From Escherichia coli (GTDB taxonomy: Bacteria; Pseudomonadota; Gammaproteobacteria; Enterobacterales; Enterobacteriaceae), in NCBI RefSeq assembly GCF_003334255.1, contig NZ_QOWU01000051.1: a stretch of DNA of 41,368 nucleotides; one strand, given 5' to 3'. Below the pieces are notes generated by a model. The model was given only the letters and a program-made list of their open reading frames with translations, searched no databases and had not been told where the DNA came from. Shown piece by piece: positions 2,043 through 33,400 of the stretch. The position numbers and the translations under genes are program-made. Numbering within the stretch: position 1 is the first letter of the stretch; each line of letters opens with the position of its first letter.

Positions 2043-4787
2043 TCAAATCGCGTTCAGGTCTTTCTTATTCAACCATGCTTCCAGATCGGCAACACTGCGT
2101 GTAATTTCTTCGTGTGGAAGGGGGGCAGATAATGGCTGCTGCTCCAGTTGTGCGCATAGCTGGCTGGCGATACGCATTCCCAGACTCGAGCAACTGCTTT
2201 TTAGCTGATGCGCGGCACGCTTTATTTTCTCGCTATCCTGACTGGCGCGGGCAATGTCGATTTCATCGAGAAGCGGCAGGGCATGTTGTGTAAATAATAC
2301 CAGCCATTCGTGGATCTTCTCCGTCCCCATTAACTGAGCATCTTCATTGAGTTGCGATACATCCAGCGATTGATCGTTATTGACTTGCAGTTGGAGATAG
2401 TGCGCCAGTAACTGACCGAGCACTTCACGCGGCACCGGTTTAGGGATAATCCCGCGGAATAATGAACTGGTACGCTGGCGCAGCGTTTCGTCAATGACAT
2501 GGGCGCTAAAGCCAATCAAAACCAGCGACGGATATTGCTGTGCCAGTTGTCGGGCAAGCGTAATGCCGTCGACATCCGGCAGATCAAAATCCACCAGTGC
2601 GGCAGCAAACGGTTCGCTATTTTGCAGTGTCTCTAAAGCCTGCGCGGCATTGCCAACAGCAACAACCTGCGCACCACTGGTGTTCAGCATCTCAACGGTA
2701 ATTCGCTGGGTTAGCGGGTTATCTTCAATTAACAGCAAACGTAAACCGTCAAGACGCACCGCCTGATTGACTGTTTTTGGCACGGGTGCCGTGGCAACAC
2801 GTAACGGCAAGCGTAAACAAAAACAGCTTCCAACCTCCGGCGTGCTGGTGGCGCTCAGTTCGCCGCCCATCGCCTGGGCCAGACGGCTACTGATAGTCAG
2901 CCCCAGCCCGGTGCCGCCGCGTTTGCCGCTTACCTGCACAAATGGCTGGAAGATTTCTGCCAGTTTCGCGGGATCAATACCGCAGCCGCTGTCTTCCACT
3001 TCGACCAGCCATTGCTCGCCATCAGTGCGACTACGCAGGATAATGTACCCTTCGTCAGTAAAACGCAGGGCGTTGCTCAACAGGTTGGTTATAACCTGAC
3101 GAATACGTCGTGGATCGCCCATTAACGCGCACGGCATATCATCGGCAATTGCCGTTGCCAGGCGAATCGGGCGACCTTTCACCCGTCCGCTCATTAATTG
3201 CAGGGTACTTTCCAGCAGCGGGCGCGGTTCAAAGGGCTCATCGCTGACCGAAACATTCTTGCCACCTGCTTCGATAGCGGAATAATCGAGAATATCGTTG
3301 AGGATGGTCAGCAACGATTCACCAGAGTCAGTAATTGCCCGCAAATCATCACGCTGGGCGTTAAGTGCGGGGTTATCTGCCAGCAGTTGAGCAGTGCCGA
3401 GAATACCGTACAGCGGTGTGCGGATCTCATGGCTCATCGCCGCCAGAAACGCCGATTTTGCCTGGCTGGCTTTTTCTGCTTCCGCCCGTGCCTGTCGGTG
3501 TTCTATCACCAGTTCCTGCAATTCAGCTGTACGCGCTTTGACCTGCGCCGCCAGCTGTTCGCGGTGGCGATTCAGTGCATGAACATTGCTGCGAAACGCA
3601 TCCATCAGCCGCCCGATGGTATCCAGCTCCCGTACGCCAGCGGTTTCCGGGAAAGGGGAGTCAATATCACCGTCCAGCAGCCGTTGCAGCGCCTGCGTTT
3701 GTTCGGCAAGTGGACGCGTGACTGAGCGATAAACCACGCGCCAGAGGATCAGAATCAGTGCGCAAAGTGAAACCATCCCCAGCAATAACAGGCTGTATTG
3801 CCCGCGTGCACTCGCTTTTTCCAGATGCGCCAGTCCGTGCTGATTACGCAGCTCAATGGTGTCGACCAGCTGACTGACTTCGCTACTAAACTGCGCGAAC
3901 TGGGCGATGTTATTTTGTGCGAGAGTTTGTAGGTGATTGCTGATTTCACTGTCCTGCTGATACAGCGCCAGCAAATCGCTATATTGGCTAACGGTAGTTA
4001 ACGTTGTTGCGACCTGCGCACGAACACCCGGATCTTCAATGCGTATTTGCCGACGTTGCAGAATTTTCACCGCATTATTGAGCTGCTTTTCCAGCGTTGG
4101 TGCATTTTTCTGGATCTGCTCCAGCCCCAGATTCATCACCATTTGCTGCACCCGCAGAGCGCTAAGGCGCAGTTCATTCATCTGGTTAACATACTCAAGA
4201 TCGATATCAATCAGCCGATCGAGTGCACTTTCAGCAGCCTGACGCTGATCTTGTTCGATCAAATCGTAAATCCCGGCCTGGGTCGCTCCAGCGGAAGTTG
4301 TCGCATTATTCGCCTGACCTTGCGCCAGGCGTGCGATCTCATCGGCGGCAGCGACTATCTGCTGACTGAGTTGCTGTTGTTGCTGGCGCAGTTGCAAACG
4401 CTGCCCCACCAGTTCCCCTTGCTGACGTAACGAACGGGAGATCTCCTGCTCCTGTTGTTCAATAGCGGTGGTATCAAAACCTTGTTCCCGTAACGCTTGC
4501 AGCAACGCATTAATCTTCAGGCTTTGTGCGGTGAGCATTCGCCCCTGCGCCTGCCACATCTTTTCGTTATCGGCACTGGTCAGGTTCTGCGCGGCGAAAA
4601 GTTCCCAGGCGCTGGCTTCGCTCAACTGGCGCGCCATATTCATGGTAGGAATCAATGCCTGAGTGTTGTCTTTTTCCACCTGGCTGATAAAGCGCAGGTT
4701 GTACCATCCCACCAGGGTACTGGTCAGGGTTAACAGCGCCATCAGGGCAAAGCCCATCCAGAGTCTTCGGGTCAGGGTTAAATTCAC
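2043..4787 (-). CDS. torS: TMAO sensor hybrid histidine kinase TorS
   Basis: 914-aa ORF with an N-terminal TM/periplasmic region, HisKA (SHEIRTP), receiver and C-terminal HPt domain; sits divergent from torT. Confidence 0.95.
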
Positions 4788-27913: not shown

Positions 27914-29422
<1,509 letters not shown>

Positions 29423-29720
29423 GGGACTTAGCCTGCGGCGGTTTTGTTTGGCTTCAGCAGCGGGTTGCGCTCCCTTAATGTGCCTCGCCATATAAATTGA
29501 ATGGTGCAGGGAGCGCGCAGGGGGCGGCCAATCGCCGCCGCCCCCTGCTGTCCCGGCCTTCGGGGAACGCTTCAGCGATTTTGACGCCACCAACACCCGA
29601 GCTGTTATTATGTTCCGGGCAAAAAGTTAGATTTGATAATCGCGGATGGACGAAATTGCTTGATACACCCGCTTATCAGTTTTACATGGAAGCTCTGATG
29701 CATTGAGTCTGGACAGTTTT

Positions 29721-29757
29721 GTCGGCTGGATACGGCGTTTACGCGGCATCCGGCAAG
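29721..29757. repeat. REP element
   Basis: gtcggctggatacggcgtttacgcggcatccggcaag palindromic unit. Confidence 0.5.
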
Positions 29758-29887
29758 AACACATGGTTCTTTGCAAACAATCCCATCTTTCTACCCTGGA
29801 ATAATCGTTTATATCCCTTGGCATTACCTCTCTTTGTTTACATTCCAACATCATTTTATAAACATTCCGCTTGTGTTTTTCTTTGCC

Positions 29888-33266: not shown

Positions 33267-33400
33267 GCGGATAAGGCATTTGTGCGCAGATGCCTGATGC
33301 GACGCTTGCGCGTCTTATCATGCCTACAATCAGTGCGGGTTTGGTAGGCTGGATAAGGCGTTCACGCCGCATCCGGCGATCGTGCACTGATGCCTGATGC
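33267..33400. repeat. REP/BIME cluster
   Basis: ggcggataaggcatttgtgcgcagatgcctgatgcg and ggctggataaggcgttcacgccgcatccggcg palindromic units. Confidence 0.55.

Follow-up and report, generated by a model that had tools for sequence, protein, structure and literature searches.

What are the GC-rich inverted repeats that follow the stop codon of putP in Escherichia coli, and do they serve putP? The question was raised by a stretch of 41,368 nucleotides (E. coli K-12, contig NZ_QOWU01000051.1; hereafter, the window), in which the gene order is putA, putP, an efeU pseudogene, efeO and efeB, according to the RefSeq annotation of the identical K-12 sequence. By the same annotation, the putP coding sequence (an open reading frame of 502 aa) occupies 27914-29422 of the plus strand, with the stop codon TAA at 29420-29422; efeU starts at about 29965, and the putP-efeU intergenic region holds the feature studied here. 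The 538 bases 3' of putP are 100% identical to those of MG1655 and many other strains. A sequence-only reading of this region had described an 11-bp perfect GC-rich stem nested inside a second inverted repeat and followed by a small third hairpin, none of them with a typical U-tract, and had suggested a putP 3' stabiliser, a variant terminator, a protein-binding site or a small structured RNA.

The GC-rich stem is real and perfect, but its length is 12 bp and not 11 (29517-29528 paired with 29537-29548 around an 8-nt loop); this hairpin (hairpin B; 29517-29548, plus strand), a conserved helix of the repeat described below, was folded alone as RNA at -31.3 kcal/mol (z = -4.6), and none of 200 shuffled sequences folded as well. 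The second inverted repeat, GCGCTCCCT / AGGGAGCGC, is perfect and forms a 9-bp stem (29467-29475 / 29508-29516); the resulting hairpin A (29467-29516, plus strand; RNA fold, -23.1 kcal/mol, z = -2.2) has a loop that is variable among copies. Both arms of this repeat lie upstream of the GC-rich stem, so that the two hairpins are adjacent, not nested. The small third hairpin (cccgg...cgggg, about 29552-29565) did not exceed chance (z = -0.23 at -6.6 kcal/mol; 80 of 200 shuffled sequences folded as well), and in full-length copies of the repeat its bases pair elsewhere, in long-range helices. Neither large stem is followed by a T/U tract, in agreement with the earlier remark, and the terminator scan was empty before 29896. 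As for the whole 145-nt stretch, its RNA fold gave z values of -3.3 and -2.8 on the two strands against shuffles, and DNA parameters gave -3.4 and -2.8 (DNA fold of -36.6 kcal/mol at z = -3.4).

When 29423-29610 was searched in 5426 complete genomes of E. coli, the median genome had three places with a match; besides the putP locus, those of K-12 lie between dusC and yohP and between lysO and aqpZ, where the copies are about 270 bp long. BLAST and alignment showed that positions 29451-29606 of the window are homologous to both of these full copies (identity of 76-97% to the dusC and lysO copies over query positions 29-146 and 125-184), the putP copy aligning with their left part, which bears hairpins A and B, and with their right part, while 125 bp between these parts are absent. 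The homology and the deletion were recovered independently here, before the papers on this repeat were found. The family had been named TRIP1 by Rudd in 1999, and the name was kept by Li et al. in 2024, in whose list TRIP1b is located at NC_000913.3 1080855-1081000 and has a 125-bp internal deletion relative to TRIP1a (PMC10888264). Subtraction of 1051391 (the offset obtained from the putP coordinates) from the published position places TRIP1b at 29464-29609 of the window (plus strand), and the detectable homology extends slightly further, from about 29441 to 29612. With homology at both ends of the unit, and with the published position and extent in agreement, the interval belongs to the TRIP1/RRS family (for RRS, see below), and we are practically certain that it is TRIP1b. 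The feature itself is already known and its novelty is nil, and the apparent oddity after putP is settled; the hairpins belong to a repeat fragment that had been catalogued before and are no unrecognised signal of putP. A dispersed repeat, which is the actual identity, was missing from the explanations that had been listed.

TRIP1 was reported in 3529 of 6725 genomes with no function attached, and chromosomal inversions mediated by TRIP1 are documented (PMC10888264). To that survey the present analysis adds the full-length copies at the putP locus (946 genomes), a sixth locus (asmA-yegH), and the homologs in Klebsiella and Citrobacter. The asmA-yegH copy (strain 2017.06.04CC, L049, about 2486-4033) lies outside the five loci a-e of Li et al. 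2024, and its right end resembles the Citrobacter type. Klebsiella pneumoniae is richer in copies than E. coli, with at least 13 places in one chromosome (CP125156.1). Close pairs of copies were also seen, in tandem 437 bp apart in K. pneumoniae (L011, about 1457-2180) and inverted in Pseudocitrobacter (L040, 5415-5789) and Citrobacter sp. MGH106 (L039, 42-445).

The putP locus itself carries the undeleted form in strain 2014C-3011, which has 125 extra bases at 29547-29548; the position of this deletion junction is ambiguous by a few bases in a short ctg repeat. The deleted 125 bp contain the 5' half of an outer helix and both of the hairpins with GGA in their loops (GGA hairpins). To the right of the junction, the remnant at 29549-29609 (plus strand) retains the orphaned halves of long-range helices (cccggcc, gcgattttg and cgcca), of which the partners, as defined on the alignment of 40 copies described below, are deleted here. 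TRIP1b, a spacer and a REP element together form a polymorphic intergenic block (29427-29859, limits approximate), as delineated by the alignment of K-12, Combat2C1, AR_0372 and 2014C-3011. The REP element (29724-29760, plus strand) is single, is separate from TRIP1b and lies between it and efeU; the Rfam search matched it partially to naRNA4 (28 bits, under the gathering score, 59.5). REPs related to it were found by BLAST elsewhere in the window (near 17008-17088, 33339-33377 and 11065-11109). Open reading frames of 64 and 69 aa overlap TRIP1b (29402-29596, minus strand; 29497-29706, plus strand), and a 'hypothetical protein' is annotated over this stretch in some RefSeq genomes; these small calls are probably spurious calls on GC-rich repeat DNA.

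A comparison across strains for compensatory changes, one of the checks proposed in the sequence-only reading, gave a positive result for each of the two large hairpins when made over the repeat family. Forty distinct full-length copies, from Escherichia, Klebsiella, Citrobacter and Pseudocitrobacter, were collected by a pattern scan (one genome per species) and BLAST. RNAalifold predicted essentially the same fold on either strand of the alignment. When the structure was fixed at 52 pairs on the G-rich strand (G strand), 99.4% of 2076 pair cells were paired and 17 pairs had double changes, against 34-43% of the cells and 2-5 pairs in slid controls, and none of 500 column shuffles reached the observed covariation score; note that the copies represent about three clades, so that independent events are fewer than cells, and that the structure was derived from the same sequences. 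In hairpin A, double compensatory changes occur in 3 of the 7 predicted pairs, the stem being GCGCTCC/GGAGCGC in Escherichia and Klebsiella and CGTTCAC/GTGAACG in Citrobacter. Across the family, the stem of hairpin B exists in at least seven distinct, fully paired versions, among them GGGGGAGGA/TCCTCCCCC in LF82 and TAAAGGGCG/CGCCCTTTA in Citrobacter. On these comparative grounds, the structure is under selection at the family level. One-sided changes mostly produce G-U/G-T pairs when the G strand is read (11 pairs; the other strand gives 4, and the counts become 9 and 2 if only pairs predicted on both strands are taken). The bias points to the G strand as the one that folds, and it is equally compatible with single-stranded DNA, which is the published mechanism, and with RNA. 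The G-runs persist in all 40 copies, by which the idea that the G-quadruplex is less conserved than the hairpins is left unsupported; the canonical (G3+N1-7)3G3+ motif is present in none of them.

Do the hairpins nevertheless act on the putP mRNA? The allele census over the 5426 genomes bears on this point. TRIP1 in its full or deleted form occupies the putP locus in 3562 genomes, of which 946 (17% of all genomes) have the full-length copy and, by subtraction, about 2616 (48%) have the K-12-type deletion; 646 genomes (12%) have a different island there, the O157-type allele, and the remainder, about 1218 genomes (about 22%), have the whole block missing. In the B2-type allele (seen in strain Combat2C1), the TRIP1b/REP block is replaced by about 115 bp with a canonical intrinsic terminator, composed of a 13-bp stem followed by the T-run GTTTTTTCTC, 45 nt after the stop codon (L008, 618-646; to 656 with the T-run). 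TRIP1b is dispensable at this locus; the genomes lacking the block, typified by the B2-type allele, have an ordinary terminator. As for the O157-type allele (O157:H7 F7349, L009, 2775-5274), it has a left and a right TRIP1-like half, both diverged, around a segment of about 2.3 kb; compensatory changes have preserved hairpins A and B in these halves. The segment bears, on the opposite strand, a 447-aa open reading frame with four internal repeats and a weak similarity to PipB2_N; the break in homology is near the loop used by an IS110-family element (see below). A cargo-carrying mobile element was considered for this arrangement and rejected, the arrangement being fixed at one locus in the 646 genomes and having no core by the covariance model R1 (described below). 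The island is a lineage-specific allele, not evidence of cargo carriage.

The canonical terminator stands in the TRIP1b-less allele at a distance equivalent to that of hairpin A, which begins 45 nt past the stop codon, and it implies that K-12-type strains, too, need something to end the transcripts of putP. The scan found nothing else terminator-like between putP and the REP element, and hairpin B is extremely stable; the hairpins may therefore define the 3' end of putP in practice, as a terminator devoid of a U-tract or as a 3' stem that stops exonucleases and sets mRNA stability. Against this role, the T-run is absent, the Adams et al. 2021 tables of 3' ends (possibly incomplete) list no end downstream of putP, and the same hairpins are antisense to their neighbours elsewhere and, at aqpZ, lie downstream of a terminator that is already complete. 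The orientation relative to the neighbouring genes is inconsistent among 44 copies (11 -/-, 10 +/-, 9 +/+, 4 -/+ and 9 undetermined, by a crude call based on open reading frames). We consider an RNA-level role for putP unlikely. None of the four explanations first proposed fits as a purpose-built feature, given that the hairpins also occur at other loci and in either orientation; in our reading, they are inherited anatomy and not a signal evolved for putP, and TRIP1b may at most give incidental protection to the putP 3' end or slow polymerases.

Far less credible still is the idea that the interval encodes an independent, structured small RNA or some small protein. The folding z values below shuffles on both strands, the overlapping open reading frames of 64-69 aa and the hypothetical protein of some RefSeq genomes could be taken to speak for one, although single-base indels among copies break any reading frame, and together with the covariation of pairs they led us to reject the protein-coding reading. 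The Rfam covariance-model search, which had also been proposed, gave chance-level matches and the partial REP match only; promoter and terminator consensus scans at the three loci detected nothing in or adjoining the element; and neither the Adams 2021 3'-end tables (possibly incomplete) nor the Shinhara 2011 sRNA survey has an entry at these loci. Moreover, the part of the family that resembles an RNA, the GGA hairpins, is exactly what TRIP1b has lost.

A function is known for the two full K-12 copies, which were found independently by Pham et al. as the Replication Risk Sequences RRS-lysO and RRS-dusC, elements of 222 bp situated 650 kb on each side of dif (PMC10287960, PMC11194060). It is their G-rich strand, with the G-quadruplex-prone run GGGGGTGCAGGGGGCGGCGG, that serves as lagging-strand template; in vitro, the elements block Pol I, II and IV, and in vivo, at any placement, they cause gaps of up to 2 kb that are coated with RecA/SSB (PMC10287960, PMC11194060). 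Deletion of both RRS was impossible unless a 200-kb region was amplified, and an inverted RRS gave no RecA/SSB gap peak in vivo but still permitted viability (PMC10287960, PMC11194060). Only two prominent RecA peaks appear in the wild-type maps, and a third partial repeat is mentioned only in passing (PMC10287960, PMC11194060); no further exact site of the 20-mer was found by the RRS authors (PMC11194060). The action has been credited to a G-quadruplex plus an unspecified secondary structure (PMC10287960, PMC11194060), to which the comparative data add an elaborate fold under selection, in which compensatory changes affect 17 of the 52 pairs and wobbles favour the G strand. The intact copies are conditionally essential elements of which the mechanism is still debated. 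The G-rich strand of an intact copy, when single-stranded as the lagging-strand template, forms a large conserved structure composed of hairpins A and B, the G-quadruplex-prone run and a multi-helix core, and this structure blocks the lagging-strand polymerase and leaves the gap of up to 2 kb seen in the published experiments.

What has TRIP1b kept of this? Scanning for the 20-mer (motif from PMC11194060) gave one match with 3 mismatches, GGGACAGCAGGGGGCGGCGG against GGGGGTGCAGGGGGCGGCGG (17/20 bases), at 29535-29554 of the minus strand, where 0 are expected by chance; the exact 20-mer is absent, and the G-runs kept are of 3, 5, 2 and 2. A covariance model of the core (R1; 17 intact cores, 161 positions, 50 pairs) had no match in the window at E <= 10, whereas it scored 171-187 bits on intact copies and 20-33 bits on copies interrupted by an IS. 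The strand of the run also differs, since lysO has the 20-mer on the top strand, whereas putP has the 17/20 homolog on the bottom one. We take the two loci to be on the same (clockwise) replichore, from the established positions of oriC and dif; the G strand of TRIP1b is then the leading-strand template, not the lagging-strand template as in RRS. The 125-bp loss has removed the core and left hairpins A and B with the unpaired halves of long-range helices, in the orientation that gives no gap signal for an intact RRS in vivo. TRIP1b is presumably still present in the MG1655-derived strains used for the double RRS deletion, a point on which the papers are silent; if so, it was present where both RRS could not be cleanly deleted, and we infer that it is no substitute for them.

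One could argue that TRIP1b is still a working, weaker obstacle to replication, its plus strand (the lagging-strand template) folding hairpins A and B and causing an occasional gap. Both strands fold well with DNA parameters, the G-runs are retained, and, according to a 2026 preprint, about 66% of encounters in vitro end in a block when the lagging-strand template is the C-rich strand of intact RRS (PMC13308219); a weak effect at putP may therefore exist. The inverted intact RRS, on the other hand, has no RecA/SSB peak in vivo, the wild-type maps have no prominent peak besides the two, more than half of the folded structure is missing from TRIP1b, and its presumed presence in the double-deletion strains brought no rescue; we regard this alternative as decidedly improbable. 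TRIP1b is most likely a decayed copy, a crippled relic that is functionally inert, on the basis of the retention of hairpins A and B and the 17/20 run only, the leading-strand orientation, and the presumed presence in inviable double-RRS deletions. The very stable pair of hairpins and the G-runs count against a loss of function, and we judge that loss, taken alone, to be likely; the joint statement, that the interval is TRIP1b and no longer does what RRS does, we hold to be probable to the same degree. That about half of E. coli carry the deleted form may be due to descent or to a use that it has kept. In any case, TRIP1b and the 946 genomes with a full copy at the same locus constitute a natural pair with and without the core.

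Several observations concern the mobility of the family. At lysO-aqpZ, dusC-yohP and asmA-yegH, a 1386-bp IS110-family element was found at the same position of TRIP1 (L003, 2671-4056, strain MSB1_8B; L048, 2561-3946, strain N3; L049, right junction 3948, strain 2017.06.04CC; in L049, the right junction only, located by exact-string search). Its transposase is WP_000868863.1 (WP_059341307.1 in the third strain, 2017.06.04CC), its subterminal inverted repeats are TATGGACGCTCC / GGAGCGTCCAT, and its insertion point, in the second GGA hairpin's loop, has gaggtaac on one side and atccctg on the other; the junction sequence is present in 174 of the 5426 genomes. The TRIP1 loop looks like a site-specific target of this IS110-family element, as REP is for IS621. 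No terminal inverted repeats or target-site duplications were seen by eye at the ends and in the filled, empty and inverted alleles, among which whole intergenic blocks differ. The phage collection had no match to the repeat, and the plasmid matches were mostly mislabelled chromosome pieces, all typed as non-mobilizable. At dusC-yohP and lysO-aqpZ, the element has opposite orientations between strains (L005, 4060-4445, versus L002, 2400-2960; L006, 4841-5370, versus L003), and it follows that the G strand would be the leading-strand template in many natural strains. A simple invertible segment was rejected as the cause, since the whole intergenic block differs with the orientation, including the last codons of dusC.

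The core that TRIP1b has lost raises a further question, namely whether the family has a counterpart among RNA motifs. On the G strand of intact copies, the outer helix encloses two hairpins with the loops C-AUGGAU-G and CA(N)GGA(C/U)G; none of the 40 copies lacks GGA in the second hairpin, whereas any of the four bases occurs at N. The first GGA hairpin was part of the search pattern, by which its invariance is uninformative, though it is the same in copies found by BLAST. The hairpin consensus for CsrA/RsmE is (A/U)CANGGANG(U/A), which the GGA loops of the intact copies match in sequence, so that they are candidate CsrA-type hairpins. The Rfam motif TwoAYGGAY (RF01731) aligned with full copies over its full length at sub-threshold scores of 30.9, 31.0 and 36.4 bits (K-12 copy, 30.9; gathering score, 43). 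The sole copy above 43 was the diverged, inverted second copy of Pseudocitrobacter (L040), with 49.2 bits; the same copy scored 70.8 bits (E = 4e-15) with the TRIP1-core model and keeps the layout of hairpin A, hairpin B and core. In the window, TwoAYGGAY had no match at E <= 10 between 29000 and 30200; the two hairpins with AYGGAY loops in the outer helix are missing from TRIP1b, both being within the lost 125 bp. In its description (PMC2864571), TwoAYGGAY, from gut bacteria and gamma-proteobacteria, was regarded as an RNA that is probably not cis-regulatory; Gardner and Eldai later proposed, in 2014, that it is a CsrA-binding sRNA (PMC4333381). CsrA, Rfam and covariation go unmentioned in both the TRIP1 paper and the 2024 RRS paper (PMC10888264, PMC11194060).

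It may thus be asked whether TRIP1/RRS and TwoAYGGAY are one family, of which the conserved object would be a G-strand fold of about 270 nt with two CsrA-type hairpins; we put this forward tentatively, as a rather doubtful proposal. An RNA or CsrA role in K-12 is opposed by the inconsistent orientation, by the failure to find a promoter or terminator consensus, and by the Potts 2017 CLIP-seq table, which has no peak for dusC or ybjE. The proposal bears on the full copies, all of them elsewhere than in the window; TRIP1b in particular, with the conserved GGA hairpins gone, does not present the GGA loops in an expressed RNA by which CsrB/CsrC-type RNAs sequester. If the proposal is true, either RRS also act via a CsrA-binding transcript, which would fit the observation that the inverted RRS makes no gaps yet restores viability, or TwoAYGGAY in gut Clostridiales and other bacteria represents single-stranded-DNA replication-gap elements rather than sRNAs. 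On either option, TRIP1b would be a natural core-deletion allele that is useful as a control. The fold, with its two GGA hairpins and its match to an orphan Rfam motif, can be tested directly by point mutation in the existing RRS assays. For research on RRS, the covariation, the kinship with TwoAYGGAY and the CsrA-type hairpins, the IS target and the putP alleles can serve as leads.

Finally, the feature can be set beside the known systems. It is the TRIP1b of Li et al. 2024 in its coordinates, its 146-bp extent, its 125-bp deletion and its start 41 bp after the putP stop codon, with nothing different. With intrinsic terminators, of which the criterion is a GC stem with a T-rich run within 0-2 nt, it shares a GC-rich stem-loop shortly past a stop codon; unlike them, it has no T-tract, was undetected by the scan, and belongs to an element that is independent of orientation and locus. 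REP/BIME sequences and TRIP1 are both GC-rich, palindromic, intergenic and dispersed, and both are targets of IS110-family elements (IS621 for REP), whereas TRIP1 has a different sequence, a unit of about 270 bp and 1-5 copies in E. coli. With RRS-lysO and RRS-dusC, TRIP1b has in common the homologous sequence, hairpin B and most of the G-quadruplex-prone run (17/20), and it differs in the loss of the 125-bp core, in having a G strand that is the leading-strand template, in having no reported RecA/SSB peak and, as we infer, in not compensating for the loss of both RRS. As for TwoAYGGAY, the window copy has none of the motif and most enterobacterial copies score below 43, in contrast to the likeness in architecture, the G strand of full-length TRIP1/RRS having an outer helix and two hairpins with the loops AUGGAU and A(N)GGA(C/U); TRIP1 further adds hairpins A and B outside the motif, and the only demonstrated activity of TRIP1/RRS is on DNA.
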